Of a stretch of DNA of 64,000 bases, positions 12,993 to 25,835 are shown one piece after another. Below the pieces are notes generated by a model, which was not told where the DNA came from, made no database searches, and saw only the letters and a program-made list of their open reading frames with translations. The translations under genes and the position numbers were made by a program. Origin of the DNA: an uncultured marine group I thaumarchaeote (GTDB lineage: Archaea; Thermoproteota; Nitrososphaeria; Nitrososphaerales; Nitrosopumilaceae); contig CACDFH010000003.1 of NCBI GenBank assembly GCA_902552015.1, positions 3,269 through 67,268 of the forward strand, written 5' to 3'. Each line of letters starts with the position of its first letter. Position 1 is the stretch's first letter.

Positions 12993-13748
12993 ATGTTTGA
13001 AAATTTATGGCTAATTCCATTGGGTTTTGCAGCAGGTGTGTTGGGCTCCATCGTCGGACTAGGTGGTGGAATAATTGCAGTCCCTGCAATGACTTTTGCA
13101 GGATTTCCTCCTGCATTGGCTGCAAGTAACAGTCTTTTTGCGGCATTTAGTAATTCTGTTGCATCTACAGTATCTTATGCACGTCAAAAACGTGTAGAGT
13201 TTGGAATTGGAATAAAACTTGGGTTAATGTGCATTCCTGGTACAATCTTAGGTGCATTTGTTTCTGATATAATGACTCCTGTTGCATTTCAAATTCTATT
13301 TGCATTTGTATTGATAGCCTCTGCTGTTTACATTTTCATAAAGCGTGCAATCGATGAAAAACCATATAATAAAACTGCCATAATGATGGTTTTTTCTGCA
13401 GGTGCAAGCTTCTTTGCAGGAATTATTTCCAGTTTATTTGGTATTGGAGGAGGAATTGTATTTGTTCCATTAATGGTTATTGGAATAGGAATTCCTATGA
13501 GAAGGGCGGCTCCTACTGCACAGCTAATCTTGATGTTTGCATCTCTTAGTGGACTTTTAGTTCATTCTGCATTGGGACATCCTGATTACTTGCAAGCATT
13601 TTTCTTAGCACTTGGTGCATTTGCAGGAGGCTTGCTTGGAGCTAGATTATCCTTGGAAATCAAAGAACGAAAATTAAAAATTCTTGTAACTGTTGTTCTC
13701 TTAGCGGCTGCAGTAAAATTGATTATCGACTCGGTGGCTCTTTTTTAA
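12993..13748 (+). CDS. TauE/SafE (TSUP) family transporter
   Basis: Duplicated GLGGG / GIGGG..FVP motifs, multiple TM helices. Confidence 0.88.
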   Translation: MFENLWLIPLGFAAGVLGSIVGLGGGIIAVPAMTFAGFPPALAASNSLFAAFSNSVASTVSYARQKRVEFGIGIKLGLMCIPGTILGAFVSDIMTPVAFQILFAFVLIASAVYIFIKRAIDEKPYNKTAIMMVFSAGASFFAGIISSLFGIGGGIVFVPLMVIGIGIPMRRAAPTAQLILMFASLSGLLVHSALGHPDYLQAFFLALGAFAGGLLGARLSLEIKERKLKILVTVVLLAAAVKLIIDSVALF

Positions 13749-14181
13749 TTCTGTAAAGATTATTCTTTGATGTTAAAACTAATTCCCCATCTTCAAAGGT
13801 AGCCTCGAAATCAACACTAATCAAACCATATTCGTCATCGATATCTCTCTTATCTGAAATTGTATATTTGAGGCGTAAGACTTGGTCCGTATAAACTGGT
13901 CTTAGAAATCTAGTTTGTCTATTTTTCCATTCTTCGTCTCCATCTATCCCATACAGGACAATATAATTTCCATAAATCTGTCTTAATCTTGTAAACTCTC
14001 CTTCCATTCGTGAAATTATTGCTCTTCCTGAAATTACTCTATCTTCATCTTTTCCAGTATCTATCTCAAACATTGCATTTTTAATTCTTGAAAAACCAAG
14101 ATATTCATCTAATTCTTTTTTTGAAATACTTGTTGTGGAAACAAAGGAATTTCCTATCTTTATTGTTTTGAATTTTTCCAT
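13723..14181 (-). CDS. MaoC-like hot-dog fold protein
   Basis: TRFLRPVYTDQVL hot-dog strand motif; the D-x-N-P-x-H hydratase motif appears degenerate. Confidence 0.65.
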   Translation of the reverse strand: MEKFKTIKIGNSFVSTTSISKKELDEYLGFSRIKNAMFEIDTGKDEDRVISGRAIISRMEGEFTRLRQIYGNYIVLYGIDGDEEWKNRQTRFLRPVYTDQVLRLKYTISDKRDIDDEYGLISVDFEATFEDGELVLTSKNNLYRIKKEPPSR

Positions 14182-14184
14182 TTC

Positions 14185-15933
14185 TTATCTAGATTCATCA
14201 GGACAGAAAATTACTTCTGCACTGGATCTTGAATCATCGGATATTAAATAATTCACAGCATCTGTAATTCTGGCATTGTTTGGTTCTTTTCCGTCTACTG
14301 TTCCTGCTAATACTAGGAATGCTCTGACATTTGATTTCAAAACATCGCTTAGTTCTTGGTTAACAGTTGTTGCAAATGGTCGTAGTGCACCTCTAAAAAC
14401 TTCAACTTTAGCTCTTTCTCCGCCTCCTATCTTTTTTCCATATGGGAGGTCAGGACCGATTATTACAATACGTCCTTTTGCATCTTTGAAAAGTCTTGGA
14501 TCTTCTGAACCATTAGGAACAAAAATTCCCATTGCATTTTGACTAACAGTAGCTGGAATGTTGATGAATTTGTCGGTTAAACTATCCCATTCACTTCTAG
14601 ATAATTCTGTTAATTTCGATATTGCTGGAACTTTACCGGTAATGTGTATGAATACTTCAATATCTCCTTTTGATTTTGCAGTGTTAAACCATCTTGTAAT
14701 TTCTTCGTTATTTGAAAAATCAATTACATGTGAATGGAATTTGTTTGAAATTGAATCTTGAATTTCTTTTGGACATTTGTCTGAAATGAAACAAATTGCT
14801 TGACCTCCGTTAGATTGTACATTGGTTGCAATTTCTTCGGCTTTCTTTGCATCTTCTTCATCTGTTGCATCAATTGTTAGCACTGCAATTTTTGATGAAT
14901 AATCATATTGTTTCACAGTTTCTGGAACTGATGTTATGTGTGATCTTACTGGATAGAAAACTCTGTCACCTGGAATAATTTTTCCATTTAGAATTTTTGC
15001 CTGTTGATCATCTGCTAATGTTAAAACTGTTGTTGCAACTTGATCTTGTGATAAGAATTGTTGATCTGCAATCATTGTTGATGTATTCTTTTGAATTTTT
15101 TCTGCAATGCTTTGTACTTTATTGAGTAAATTGGTAAATGTTGATTCTTGTTTTCCTAATTTTTCTGCAGCGGCTTTAATTCCATTCTTGATTGTATCTT
15201 CGTCCTCTCCTAACAAACCTACAATTTCTTTATTTGCAGCCTCAACTTCTGTAGGTACTAAATCTTCAAATCCACTAACTCTAAGAAATTCCGATGCAGC
15301 TTTTGGATAAACTGTCTTGTAAATTCTGTCTGAGTGTACTGGACCTGGGTTTGTTCCAATTGAAATAATTCCTTTTTCAGTTAATTCCCATGACATTGCT
15401 TCAACTAATCTGTTCTTTGCACCTTGTGATGCTGTATATGGACCTCTGAATCTGTATGGTCTTTGTTCTAATGGTCTCTCTTCAGCAAAGAATGTTGAAA
15501 TTGTAATAATTTTGCCACCTTCTTTCATTACCTTTAATGCTTGTACGGATGTCCAAAATGTTCCAGTTAGGTGTATGTCAACTGTGCTTCTGAAATCTTC
15601 TAATGGTGCATGTGAGAAACATGTAACCGGTCCTGAAACTCCGGCATTATTTACAATTACATCTACATTGATACCTTCATTTTTTAAAGCATCAAACATT
15701 TCTGTAACTGATTTTTCATCACTGACGTCTACTCCTGAAAATATCTTTACAAATCCATTTGAATTTTTTTCATTAATGATTTTTGTTAGCATTTCTGATG
15801 TACTCTCAAGAGGCTCCTTTCTTCTGCCTAAAATGATGACACTGGCTCCATTTTCTACGAATTTCTTTGCAACCGTCATTCCGATGCCGGTTCCACTGCC
15901 TGTGATTAAAACAACTTTATTTTCGAACTTCAA
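14185..15933 (-). CDS. two-domain SDR oxidoreductase, malonyl-CoA reductase-like
   Basis: TGSGTGIG, GRR (NADP), NNAG, PYRFRGPYTAS, NPGPVHSDR; second degenerate Rossmann domain in the C-terminal half. Confidence 0.8.
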   Translation of the reverse strand: MKFENKVVLITGSGTGIGMTVAKKFVENGASVIILGRRKEPLESTSEMLTKIINEKNSNGFVKIFSGVDVSDEKSVTEMFDALKNEGINVDVIVNNAGVSGPVTCFSHAPLEDFRSTVDIHLTGTFWTSVQALKVMKEGGKIITISTFFAEERPLEQRPYRFRGPYTASQGAKNRLVEAMSWELTEKGIISIGTNPGPVHSDRIYKTVYPKAASEFLRVSGFEDLVPTEVEAANKEIVGLLGEDEDTIKNGIKAAAEKLGKQESTFTNLLNKVQSIAEKIQKNTSTMIADQQFLSQDQVATTVLTLADDQQAKILNGKIIPGDRVFYPVRSHITSVPETVKQYDYSSKIAVLTIDATDEEDAKKAEEIATNVQSNGGQAICFISDKCPKEIQDSISNKFHSHVIDFSNNEEITRWFNTAKSKGDIEVFIHITGKVPAISKLTELSRSEWDSLTDKFINIPATVSQNAMGIFVPNGSEDPRLFKDAKGRIVIIGPDLPYGKKIGGGERAKVEVFRGALRPFATTVNQELSDVLKSNVRAFLVLAGTVDGKEPNNARITDAVNYLISDDSRSSAEVIFCPDESR

Positions 15934-20156: not shown

Positions 20157-21293
20157 CTAGTCTGGATCTTCGTAATTTTCTTTTCTTTCACTAGTGTCTG
20201 ATTTTGAATCCATTGGAACCATTTTTTCTTTGAGTCCTGTCATGACATCTTTGTATCCTTCTGCATATTCTAATTCATCTGGAACAAGTGTTGCTGGATG
20301 AATGAATCCTTGACTTCTTATTGCTAATGCTTTCTTTGTTGCTTGTTCTCTTACATAATCCCAATCAGGTGTTGAGAATCCATCAAATGGACCTGTAAAC
20401 TTTCCATCATGCATGCTGAATACTAGTGATTGTACAATTGGAATACAGAAATTAATTGTTGCAGCAGAATTTAGTTTAACAGGCATTAAAGGCATGTTGT
20501 GACTTCCTCTTGTATTTCCTGCAACGTAATGTGGATTGTTGAAAACACTTCCTGCTTCTTCAGTTGCTGGGAACATTTTCTGTGTTCTTACAATACATAC
20601 TGGATCATCTTTACCAACATAAGTTCCTGCAATGTTGTGTAGTCTGTCTGTTGATGCATCCATTATTGGTTCTCCATCTTTTGTTGTGATTGATGAAATG
20701 ACGTATCTTCCTGGATACATTAAAGCAGCTTCTAAAACTGGTTTGTCTTGCCATAATGATAATTTTGCAATGCTTGCTTCTTCTACATCCATTATGTGAA
20801 AGTCAACACCTTTTGCAAGTGATTTGTTTACAATTAATCCTGTGTTACTTAATGCGTCTACAAACAATCTATACATTGGATAGTTAAAACATCCTGGTTC
20901 TGTTTTATCTGCAGCAAAAACTGTAAATGCTTCGTTAGCTCTTTCCTCAAATTCTAACTCTGCTACTCCTGGTCCCATTCCTTTTACGTTTCCTGAAAAA
21001 GAATCTTTCAACAAATCTTGACCTGCGCCATACAGTCCTTCTTTTTTTGCAACTGCGGTTCCTGCTTCAAATGCATCCCATGCTAACTTGTGAATTTTTT
21101 CATTGTCTACTCCGTGTGTGTGGCTCATGACAATGTGTACATCATCTCCACAATATCCGATATAATGATCAATCAATAGATCTGCTGAAGCGTTTACAGT
21201 ATCTCTAACTGCTTGAATCAAATTGTCACTAGGTCTTGTATGTCCTCCAATACCTCCGACATCTGCTTTGATTACCGATACTGTAATTTTCAT
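20157..21293 (-). CDS. fbp: fructose-1,6-bisphosphate aldolase/phosphatase (class V)
   Basis: SVIKADVG, GLYGAGQDLLKDSFSGNVKGMGPG, YVGKDDP. Confidence 0.96.
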   Translation of the reverse strand: MKITVSVIKADVGGIGGHTRPSDNLIQAVRDTVNASADLLIDHYIGYCGDDVHIVMSHTHGVDNEKIHKLAWDAFEAGTAVAKKEGLYGAGQDLLKDSFSGNVKGMGPGVAELEFEERANEAFTVFAADKTEPGCFNYPMYRLFVDALSNTGLIVNKSLAKGVDFHIMDVEEASIAKLSLWQDKPVLEAALMYPGRYVISSITTKDGEPIMDASTDRLHNIAGTYVGKDDPVCIVRTQKMFPATEEAGSVFNNPHYVAGNTRGSHNMPLMPVKLNSAATINFCIPIVQSLVFSMHDGKFTGPFDGFSTPDWDYVREQATKKALAIRSQGFIHPATLVPDELEYAEGYKDVMTGLKEKMVPMDSKSDTSERKENYEDPD

Positions 21294-24148: not shown

Positions 24149-24658
24149 ATGGCAAAAATGCGTCAGATCTTGGTAATTGGAAATAATGACAATGGCTGCA
24201 CTCCTGAGCTTGAAAAAATTGCATATGATGCAGGAAAAGAAATTGCAGCATCTAATTCTGTATTGATTACTGGAGGTTTAGGTGGTGTCATGAAGGCTGC
24301 ATCTCATGGAGCAAAAGATGGCGGCGGTTTAACAATTGGAATTATTCCTCAAGATGATTCTTCTCTTGCAAATGAATTTTGTGATATAGTAATTCCTTCT
24401 GGTATGGGATTATCTAGAGACTTTCTAAATGCATTATCTGCAGATGGTGTAATAGTTGTAGGTGGAGGCTCTGGAACCTTATCTGAAATATGTGCTGCAT
24501 ATATGTACAAAAAACCAATTGCAACTCTCAAAAACTCCGGTGGCATGGCCACAAAATATTCTGATCAATTTTTAGATCACAGAGAAAATGTGAAAATTGT
24601 TGGATTTGATTCTCCAAAAGAAGCCGTTGATTATATTTTAGAACAGATTAACTCATAG
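24149..24658 (+). CDS. LOG/SLOG family protein (TIGR00725-like)
   Basis: TGGLGGVMKAA, GIIP, GGGSGTLSE. Confidence 0.85.
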   Translation: MAKMRQILVIGNNDNGCTPELEKIAYDAGKEIAASNSVLITGGLGGVMKAASHGAKDGGGLTIGIIPQDDSSLANEFCDIVIPSGMGLSRDFLNALSADGVIVVGGGSGTLSEICAAYMYKKPIATLKNSGGMATKYSDQFLDHRENVKIVGFDSPKEAVDYILEQINS

Positions 24659-25787
24659 ATTCTAGCAGTGGGTCTGGTTTGTAAAACTCACCATGTTCTT
24701 CTGCTAATTTGTTTAATTCATCTACAATATTTTTAATTCCAATTTCTTTTGCTGTTTCAAATAGTGGTTTTCTTAAACCCAGTCCGAGCTTGCATGCTTT
24801 TTCAATCTCTTCAATATCACTTGCACCGTTTGTAATTAACCATGCAGCATTATTCAGTATATTTGCAACAAGTTGAATAGGATTGCATTTTTCTGCTAAT
24901 TCCTCAGATAGTTCAACTCTTTCGTATTTATCATCTGAATATTTGTAATAACCTTCTCCGGATTTTTGACCCAACTTTTTCTCATCAAACATTTTTTCAA
25001 CTGTACTGTGTGGGTTGATTACTTTTTTATCTCGTAGATGCATTTCGACAGTTGCTTTGTGAATTACATCCATTCCTGTAAAATCAGCTAATTCAAAAAT
25101 GCCCATAGGGAATCCAAGCTTGAATTTGACTGCAGAATCTATCTCTTCTAATGTTGCACCTGTTCTATCTTGTAGATAACATGCTTCGTGAACCATTGGA
25201 ATGAATAATCTGTTTATGATAAATCCTGGAACGTCTTTTCTACATAACACTGCTTGTTTATTCACTGATTTTACAAACTCTTGAGTCATTTCAGTAATCT
25301 CATCGGAAGTTTTTTCTCCTGGAATTACCTCAACAAGTTTCATTAATTGTGGTGGATTGAAAAAATGAATTCCTATAAATTTCTCTGGACGTGATGTCGT
25401 ATTTGCTATTTCTGTAATTGGTAATGTGCTGGTATTTGATGCAAAGACTACTTCTGGTTTTGCAGCCTTGTCTAATTCTGCATAAACTTGTTTTTTGAGA
25501 TCCATTATTTCTGGAACTACCTCGATTACTAACTCTGCATCTTTTACTGCGTCATTCAAATCTACAATAGGTGTAATTCTTGAATAAATTGCATCTCCTT
25601 CTTCTTTTGAAATTTTCTCTTTTGTGACTAGTTTGTCTAAACTCCATTTTATTTTCTCCATGGCTTTGTCAAGAAATTCTTGTTTGATGTCACGTAGTAC
25701 AACATTATATCCTGCAGTAGCAGAGACTTGGGCAATTCCATGTCCCATAACTCCTGAACCTAAAACTGTGATATTTTTTACTGACAC
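24648..25787 (-). CDS. (S)-3-hydroxybutyryl-CoA/3-hydroxyacyl-CoA dehydrogenase (3HP/4HB cycle)
   Basis: GSGVMGHGIAQ, ASNTSTL, GIHFFNP, GFIINR, duplicated C-terminal domain; GTG start at 25787. Confidence 0.9.
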   Translation of the reverse strand: MSVKNITVLGSGVMGHGIAQVSATAGYNVVLRDIKQEFLDKAMEKIKWSLDKLVTKEKISKEEGDAIYSRITPIVDLNDAVKDAELVIEVVPEIMDLKKQVYAELDKAAKPEVVFASNTSTLPITEIANTTSRPEKFIGIHFFNPPQLMKLVEVIPGEKTSDEITEMTQEFVKSVNKQAVLCRKDVPGFIINRLFIPMVHEACYLQDRTGATLEEIDSAVKFKLGFPMGIFELADFTGMDVIHKATVEMHLRDKKVINPHSTVEKMFDEKKLGQKSGEGYYKYSDDKYERVELSEELAEKCNPIQLVANILNNAAWLITNGASDIEEIEKACKLGLGLRKPLFETAKEIGIKNIVDELNKLAEEHGEFYKPDPLLESMS

Positions 25788-25835
25788 GAACCACCTTTGA
25801 AAAACCATTATATCAATCCTAGTTTGAAATACTAC

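Follow-up and report, generated by a model that had tools for sequence, protein, structure and literature searches.

The window analyzed here, a 64,000-nucleotide stretch of contig CACDFH010000003.1 from an uncultured marine group I thaumarchaeote, encodes a 582-residue short-chain dehydrogenase/reductase (SDR) that resembles one half of malonyl-CoA reductase (MCR; Table 1). We consider it very likely that this protein acts as a reductase in the carbon-fixation cycle of the ammonia-oxidizing archaea (AOA). By elimination we predict, with a probability of roughly one half, that its main job is to reduce malonyl-CoA, giving malonic semialdehyde. A preliminary description of this DNA, made from the sequence alone, had presented the protein as a candidate for this step; the same gene was probably flagged long ago, as Hallam 2006 singled out, in a passage of PMC1403158, a Cenarchaeum SDR that shows 32% identity to Chloroflexus MCR in its N-terminal domain and is probably an orthologue. 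The idea of the candidate is therefore old, and what is new is the comparative support: a sister clade linked to propionyl-CoA synthase (PCS) and carrying an N-like partner, near-perfect co-occurrence with amoA, and the absence of a rival enzyme family in one genus. This support makes the SDR the first gene to assay for the malonyl-CoA step.

A predicted two-domain reductase with the architecture of an MCR half

The reading frame begins with a TTG codon and contains no internal stop, and the source records of near-identical proteins (95–97% identity) call these SDRs and assign them to Candidatus Nitrosopelagicus. An AlphaFold model built from 62 sequences (pLDDT 90.7, pTM 0.91) divides the protein into a catalytic SDR core, an all-helical lid, a short tail belonging to the core, and a second Rossmann domain that lacks both a glycine-rich motif and YxxxK. 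Among the 62 orthologues 58 of the 203 core positions are invariant. Conservation of the lid is concentrated at its ends, with 13 of 18 positions invariant in the first helix (including K211 and R218), K279 invariant in the last helix, and none of the 49 positions of the middle bundle. The lid spans 89–107 residues, and its middle accommodates low-complexity inserts; in genus g154 (L111/L118, L112–L114) these are rich in Ser, Thr and Pro and extend the lid to as many as 149 residues. In one g154 genome (G460; L111/L118) the frame shifts within the lid, because of a misassembly or because the gene is split.

All of the motifs quoted in the preliminary description are present (TGSGTGIG at residues 11–18, GRR at 36–38, and the stretches at 62–71, 145–152, 157–169 and 196–203), the Chloroflexus MCR stretches that it gave agree with the sequence of PDB entry 8hjw, and its SDR-insert-SDR layout corresponds to the domains of the model. 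The protein is not a FabG-type enzyme of ~250 residues with a single domain and YxxxK, and among the 25 matches listed none passes a curated NCBIfam FabG-type model (best score 111 bits versus a cut-off of 222). An MCR of the Sulfolobales type, which belongs to the Asd family, is ruled out since both the Pfam family and the fold are those of an SDR.

When the full model is compared with solved structures using Foldseek, the top 23 matches listed are all MCR chains that align over the full length of the model (query TM 0.67–0.75), followed by the tandem SDR 2et6 (TM 0.56) and then by single SDRs (0.39 or below). VIA-align likewise lists MCR chains as its top 20 matches (Z 32.4–34.5, 485–522 residues aligned). 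Generic FabG-like SDRs, which the preliminary description had named as the relatives that would count against its proposal, are thus not the closest structures to the full-length protein. The two MCR halves are nearly tied (N half 8hi6, Z 34.5 with 485 aligned; C half 6k8u, Z 34.0 with 521 aligned), with ~30 more residues superposing on C than on N. The preliminary description had likened the protein to the C half specifically; the MCR halves are indeed its closest solved relatives over the full length, although neither motif nor fold picks out C.

Active site residues

Residues were related to MCR-C numbering by alignment, with roles taken from passages of bioRxiv 2023.03.21.533589. The equivalents of the MCR-C cofactor site (T11–G18, R37 for Arg604, and D69 for Asp639) are invariant, and the R37–R38 pair suggests a preference for NADPH. 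The malonate clamp of MCR-C (Tyr731, Arg734, Tyr737 and Arg773), three residues of which are each reported as essential by mutation in the same source, is complete, being represented by Y160, R163, Y166 and R203. These four residues together with T147, Q170 and K173 are each invariant in all 62 sequences, and the pattern from Y160 to K173 recurs in 70 of 70 loci. Among 741 long reading frames of the same genome PYxxRxxY occurs once, in this gene, and YxxRxxY 14 times; judged by these counts PYxxRxxY is not here by chance. A passage of PMC10470521 describes YxxRxxY as conserved in both catalytic domains of MCR, and the motif therefore marks a three-carbon carboxylate substrate and not a particular half-reaction. 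The preliminary description gave PY-x-x-R-x-x-Y correctly but overlooked this dual occurrence, and also that the catalytic motif reads YxxxQ.

The Lys741 and Gln744 positions of MCR-C are swapped in the AOA protein, such that glutamine (Q170) occupies the place of the YxxxK lysine and a lysine (K173) follows three residues later, in 62 of 62 sequences. In MCR-C, Arg734 is described as the acid/base and the lysine as contacting the ribose (bioRxiv 2023.03.21.533589, in part), whereas a section of PMC10470521 describes a Tyr-Lys relay for the alcohol-forming step of MCR-N. Of the Thr-Tyr-Lys triad of MCR-N, Thr and Tyr are kept and Lys is replaced by Gln. By analogy with these mechanisms the swap would fit the acyl-CoA step somewhat better. 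The loop from Ser/Thr to Tyr is 13 residues long, compared with 12 in MCR-C and seven in MCR-N and the bacterial partner modules discussed below, and the residue at Tyr+7 is polar, as in MCR-C. A conserved Arg lies 13–15 residues past R203, where canonical C halves have the invariant R798/R799 (R799 is essential in RfxMCR), and, at the sequence level, the invariant K211, R218 and K279 are in plausible register with CoA-binding basic residues of RfxMCR (R799, K807, K919 and R1164 in that enzyme), R1164 itself not being kept. Glu779 was dropped as a discriminating position; the AOA protein has Y209 there, and Glu779 also varies among 21 canonical MCR-C sequences.

We propose that NADPH would bind domain 1 through T11–G18, R37/R38 and D69, by transfer from MCR-C, that Y160, R163 and R203 would grip the malonyl carboxylate, and that T147 and Y166 would polarize the thioester carbonyl. 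Hydride transfer would give a hemithioacetal, whose collapse with R163 as acid/base would release CoA and the semialdehyde. The lid, through K211, R218 and K279, may form a cover for the CoA arm, closing against the second, inert domain, with Q170 presumably keeping the ribose contact and K173 supplying the displaced lysine.

Bacterial relatives

A search of 1.84 billion cluster representatives gave, as the best matches outside the AOA, modules that belong to large proteins of bacteria. These modules rank ahead of canonical MCRs and share YxxRxxYxxxQxxK; we refer to them and the AOA protein as Q-type. They include P0127, P0129, P0142 and P0148 (Deferrimicrobium/Deltaproteobacteria), P0151 (Acidobacteriota) and P0168 (labelled Chlamydiota). 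The closest is P0127 (5572 residues; 36% identity over 605 columns spanning the whole module, E 1e-94), which also bears synthetase, enoyl-CoA reductase and hydratase domains. The bacterial modules differ from the AOA form, which stands alone, in that they reside in four-SDR or giant proteins together with an N-like partner and PCS-like domains. A search for longer homologues, which was crowded and weak, returned three MCRs and two NRPS-like proteins only, and a search with the P0127 region returned P0127 and P0129 alone.

In ten of 11 representative bacterial Q-type proteins there is a second module with the seven-residue loop and YxxxK of MCR-N, and in all three profile comparisons these partner modules are nearer to N than to C (269/249, 80/56 and 378/303). 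P0147 and P0156 have a degenerate partner motif. The Q module comes first in P0151 and matches MCR-C chains best, and the module behind it matches MCR-N. Because the bacterial proteins already have an N-like partner, the acyl-CoA step would be left to the Q module. Six of 11 large proteins tested contain parts homologous to a synthetase/enoyl-CoA reductase/hydratase protein. A PCS-like gene lies directly upstream in eight of 11 loci examined in the P0151 group, most of them from Acidobacteriota, and is 5–15 bases away in the three loci measured. The best PDB match of this gene is 6eqo (E 7e-246), which we take to be propionyl-CoA synthase. The three domains agree with the account of propionyl-CoA synthase given in a passage of PMC1403158. 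By association, this context would place the Q clade between malonyl-CoA and propionyl-CoA.

Among the individual bacterial genes, Polarisedimenticolia (Acidobacteriota) have a gene pair (L074 2868–9917, L075 1132–8262 and L072 1–5889, each with the genes behind it) in which a 2350-residue hydrolase-like ECH_2/synthetase/enoyl-CoA reductase/hydratase protein, differing in domain order from 6eqo, precedes a four-SDR protein that begins with the Q module; the pair is possibly an overlooked 3-hydroxypropionate route. The giant proteins P0127, P0129, P0168 and P0205 (4553–6910 residues) string together PCS-like and MCR-like modules, with the exception that P0129 has PEP carboxykinase and other enzyme domains and three MCR-like modules. 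In P0143 (1465 residues) the Q-type module is flanked by a HATPase_c domain and, towards the N terminus, by a kinase-like part.

In trees of the catalytic domains the AOA sequences form a clade (SH-aLRT 98–99) nested within the bacterial Q-type modules (98–99), outside the clades of canonical N (100), canonical C (100) and partner modules (98–99). In the phylogeny that the preliminary description had proposed as a check, the protein thus falls in neither the canonical MCR-C nor the canonical MCR-N clade. The rows left out of the tree work were P0143, P0280, nine of 21 canonical MCRs, six of 15 AOA rows and eight of 20 generic SDRs, with the long P0127 partner row also left out of the C20 tree and the approximately unbiased (AU) tests; P0193, which stands in for a canonical MCR, was confirmed as such. 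A quick LG+G4 tree groups Q and partner modules with support of 87, and the C20 tree, whose careful search did not finish, gives no order of branching among the four clades. Since none of these analyses, nor the AU tests, decides between the halves, phylogeny was dropped as a means of choosing one. Judged from alignments and model, the protein is predicted to work like an MCR half but to belong to neither canonical half, and the AOA likely took the module from bacteria, the partner half having been lost or never taken. In most AOA lineages the job of the partner would then be done by the iron-type semialdehyde reductase.

Distribution in ammonia-oxidizing archaea

In a sample of 301 genomes of the order, the SDR gene is present in 164 of the 166 genomes of the four amoA-bearing families (73/73, 9/9, 10/11 and 72/73) and was not found in any of 134 genomes from 16 other families, many of which are incomplete. 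For amoA itself the corresponding counts are 162 of these 166 genomes and none of the 134. The two genomes without an SDR match are drafts (67% and 97% complete). The patchy distribution named in the preliminary description as evidence against a role in the cycle is not seen. Related genomes are not independent, and the distribution therefore counts as one gain and not as 164 tests. The gene is single in 156 of 165 positive genomes. Of the nine with several matches, eight were re-examined: mostly the matches are two fragments of a single gene, or weak SDR paralogues, and there is one additional, partial copy. A phylum-wide sample gave full-length matches in family f1 alone. Three other classical SDRs of a closed genome of genus g1, used as controls, lack YxxRxxY and are found in 37, 41 and 51 of 66 AOA genomes, and in family f56 in 0, 1 and 0 of 11. 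The orthologue in Nitrosopumilus maritimus is presumably Nmar_1043, a tag that our literature search did not find, and which was reportedly listed as a candidate in 2010.

Competing enzymes and the published record

In genus g1, 38 of 41 genomes yielded no aldehyde dehydrogenase (PF00171); among these are a closed genome and eight of the nine that are at least 90% complete. The closed genome G036 yielded none either, although the family is present in most other AOA. Enzymes of the LuxC type and acylating acetaldehyde dehydrogenases were not found in any of three genomes, and matches to PF07993 in five genomes are weak or partial. PF02774 is represented by just two genes in each of five AOA, and the Asd copy tested is ordinary, passing the asd_EA cut-off and matching Asd structures at E 1e-90 versus E 4e-55 for Sulfolobus MCR. 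The iron-type dehydrogenase family (PF00465, a count that mixes the iron-type semialdehyde reductase with other family members) was found in one of 11 genomes of family f56.

Published proposals for acyl-CoA reduction name Asd (PMC4084955 Table S1; PMC5797428 Table 1) and aldehyde dehydrogenase (PMC5797428 Table 1). In the passages concerned, Abby 2018 (PMC5797428) reports no MCR homologue in Nitrosocaldus and leaves the step blank, treats SDRs of ~30% identity as semialdehyde reductase candidates, notes that the iron-type enzyme is missing there, and cites Nmar_1110 as the characterized semialdehyde reductase of N. maritimus; Li 2018 (PMC6038301) counts four unassigned reductases in the cycle. 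A passage of a 2026 preprint (10.64898/2026.09.02.748891) describes malonyl-CoA reductase as lacking or replaced in the thaumarchaeal variant, the relevant part of a 2026 marker set (PMC12894919) includes no marker for the step, and no assignment is added by sections of PMC8287830 and PMC9802188. Our literature searches, with Walker 2010, Kerou 2016, Otte 2015 and Konneke 2014 outside their scope, returned no biochemical assignment. The preliminary description's statement that the malonyl-CoA step lacks an assigned gene thus agrees with how it is still described in parts of PMC6038301, PMC5797428 and 10.64898/2026.09.02.748891.

Proposed assignment of the reaction

Compared with MCR-C, which has an SDR3-extra domain-SDR4 organization (Chloroflexus 8a30/8hjw, Roseiflexus 8hi5, Porphyrobacter 6k8s), the AOA protein has the same succession of a catalytic SDR, a helical insert after the PGP..R motif and a non-catalytic second SDR, with ~520 residues superposing at an rmsd of ~3 Å, equivalents of the clamp, Asp639 and Arg604, and the long loop. 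It differs in being free-standing, in its low identity (~18%), in having Thr for Ser719 and the Lys741/Gln744 swap, in a lid ~60 residues shorter, in the loss of R1164, and in forming a separate, well-supported clade. With MCR-N, the malonic semialdehyde reductase half (SDR1-SDR2; 8hi6, 8aew, 6k8v), it shares the tandem fold (~490 residues superpose), the Thr, YxxRxxY, the Arg after PGP and a similar length; N differs in its seven-residue loop, 32–42-residue lid and YxxxK, and the AOA SDR lies in a separate clade. The Sulfolobales malonyl-CoA/succinyl-CoA reductase (4dpk), an Asd paralogue, catalyzes the same proposed step with an unrelated fold and mechanism.

Several observations weigh against malonyl-CoA reduction as the main job, which is itself a prediction from sequence and model. 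In the active site T147 stands where MCR-C has the catalytic Ser719, as in MCR-N (62 of 62 sequences); the YxxxK lysine is a glutamine and the Lys741 equivalent is not kept, while a lysine mutant of RfxMCR-C is reported as inactive in a passage of PMC10470521; and R1164 of RfxMCR is replaced (D530/V531). Profiles are nearer to N for the catalytic domain (250 vs 209) and the whole module (313 vs 291), and the helix start R-I-x-x-T-V-Y/F is N-like; only the second domain is nearer to SDR4 (70 vs 54), a C-like trait. The full-length fold does not separate MCR-N from MCR-C, and AU tests (41 rows; catalytic, second and joined columns) rejected none of the three clade pairings. Domain 1 folded alone (pLDDT 81) has generic SDRs at the top of its structural matches, the best 50 of which include no MCR chain, and by single-domain sequence score the generic SDR 4iuy (90.7 bits) does as well as MCR-C (87.7; MCR-N 75.3); the link to MCR thus rests on the tandem arrangement and the motifs. 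The lid is shorter than the MCR-C extra domain (89–107 vs 133–164 residues), hhalign found no profile similarity between the two, and lid length is an unstable marker, as in bacterial pairs a long lid occurs on two of ten Q modules and five of 11 partner modules, and on neither module in the P0151 group. The bacterial relatives are themselves putative in function, and P0143 has a Q module without a partner. Restriction to AOA is not in itself special, since the control SDRs, at their cut-off, were likewise found in none of the 84 genomes outside the AOA in which they were sought. Family f56 lacks the iron-type enzyme in ten of 11 genomes, such that those AOA need another semialdehyde reductase, and the SDR is present there.

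The last point, paralleled in Nitrosocaldus according to part of PMC5797428, is among those favoring an MCR-N-like, NADPH-dependent semialdehyde reductase of the same cycle (forming 3-hydroxypropionate from malonic semialdehyde and/or catalyzing the unassigned conversion of succinic semialdehyde to 4-hydroxybutyrate), which we regard as unlikely although it is the strongest competitor. The catalytic Thr and the N-leaning profiles agree with it, as do the best VIA-align match (an N half), the length of 582 residues (549–579 in MCR-N), and the binding of the semialdehyde in MCR-N by YxxRxxY and the Arg after PGP (PMC10470521, in part). The loop (13 vs seven residues) and lid (89–107 vs 32–42) are nevertheless unlike N, the relay for alcohol formation would lack its Lys, the bacterial relatives already have an N-like partner, and a semialdehyde reductase has been characterized for N. 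maritimus (Nmar_1110, as cited in a passage of PMC5797428). This assignment would also leave the aldehyde dehydrogenase-free genus with Asd as its sole candidate for acyl-CoA reduction.

It is less probable still that the protein serves some other AOA-specific pathway or is a weak catalyst, with the true malonyl-CoA reductase being an unrecognized enzyme or Asd, which may moonlight in this role and has been proposed in print (in parts of PMC4084955 and PMC5797428). The broken YxxxK and the single-domain match to generic SDRs are consistent with this, as are the lack of a cycle gene as a conserved neighbor and the fact that many genes are AOA-specific. Against it stand the invariant malonate clamp, a full-length fold match to MCR only and the PCS-linked relatives, as well as the ordinary character of the Asd tested, which passes its family cut-off and lies nearer to Asd structures than to Sulfolobus MCR. 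Least probable is a different or wider CoA-ester range (mainly succinyl-CoA, both esters, or malonyl-CoA to 3-hydroxypropionate in one site), to which the four unassigned reductases (PMC6038301, in part), the lack of any aldehyde dehydrogenase-type candidate for succinyl-CoA reduction in 38 of 41 genus g1 genomes, the single Sulfolobales enzyme for both CoA esters (by the PDB name of 4dpk), the mixed N and C traits and the presence of the gene even where the iron-type enzyme was not found all point, but from which the three-carbon carboxylate clamp of both MCR halves and the C3 branch indicated by the PCS-linked relatives point away.

A more encompassing scenario, which we consider doubtful, would have a second, Lys-to-Gln MCR lineage in bacteria from which the AOA ancestor took the Q half alone, serving both malonyl-CoA and succinyl-CoA. 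In this scenario the combination seen in Acidobacteriota, Deferrimicrobium and several giant-protein bacteria, where Q is coupled to an N-like half (frequently with the order of the two reversed) and to a propionyl-CoA synthase whose domains are rearranged, would form a 3-hydroxypropionate route missed by current markers. If malonyl-CoA reduction is the correct assignment, it would close a gap open since 2006–2014, provide a one-copy marker specific to the thaumarchaeal cycle, offer 3-hydroxypropionate engineering a mesophilic reductase that stands alone, and reveal how an SDR operates when its catalytic lysine is displaced. Overlooked 3-hydroxypropionate metabolism is suggested by the bacterial sister clade.

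Genomic context and transcription

Table 1. Features of the reductase gene and its surroundings (positions within the window).
Feature	Coordinates	Strand	Basis or remark
SDR gene (MCR-half-like, Q-type), 582 aa	14185..15933	-	Reading frame, model and fold matches
Catalytic SDR core, residues 1–203	15325..15933	-	Pfam adh_short 6–202, E 1e-37
Helical lid, residues 204–292	15058..15324	-	All-helical insert in AlphaFold model
SDR-core C-terminal tail, residues 293–330	14944..15057	-	AlphaFold model
Second Rossmann domain, predicted non-catalytic, residues 345–582	14188..14901	-	Model and fold matches
Dinucleotide-binding glycine motif, residues 11–18	15880..15903	-	Invariant 62/62; aligns with MCR 578–585 region
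R37-R38, NADP(H) 2'-phosphate-type basic pair	15820..15825	-	R37 aligns with MCR-C Arg604
T147	15493..15495	-	Aligns with MCR-C Ser719, MCR-N Thr165
Motif Y160-x-x-R163-x-x-Y166-x-x-x-Q170-x-x-K173	15415..15456	-	MCR-C Y731, R734, Y737, K741, Q744
R203	15325..15327	-	Aligns with MCR-C Arg773, RfxMCR-N Arg215
Downstream gene, 152 aa, MaoC/hotdog-like	13723..14181	-	3-base gap behind SDR; language-model features
Hypothetical gene, 123 aa	16259..16630	+	Divergent from SDR; no Pfam match
FBP aldolase/phosphatase	20157..21293		4.2 kb from SDR gene
3-hydroxyacyl-CoA dehydrogenase	24648..25808		8.7 kb from SDR gene

The preliminary description pointed to two carbon-metabolism genes within ~10 kb of the SDR. 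Both are there (the last two entries of Table 1), but the arrangement is not conserved, as the fructose-1,6-bisphosphate (FBP) aldolase/phosphatase lies within 5 kb in only one of 40 orthologous 11-kb loci. No conserved carbon-cycle gene was found among the 11 neighboring genes tested in these loci; the neighbors are housekeeping genes, and the neighborhood was set aside as evidence. The 152-residue downstream gene has no Pfam or NCBIfam match, its MaoC/hotdog-like character coming from ESM features, and it adjoins the SDR gene in most loci of family f1, whereas the 27 loci from other families all lack it there. The divergent 123-residue gene is kept near the SDR gene in many loci of families f1, f51 and f62.

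A Sigma-70 promoter scan, using a model ill-suited to archaea, gave six sites compared with 10.4 expected. RNA contigs from all four runs cover parts of the SDR gene, although such contigs are uninformative about level, about strand and about whether there is a single transcript; one of 2.6 kb spans both the SDR gene and the downstream gene.

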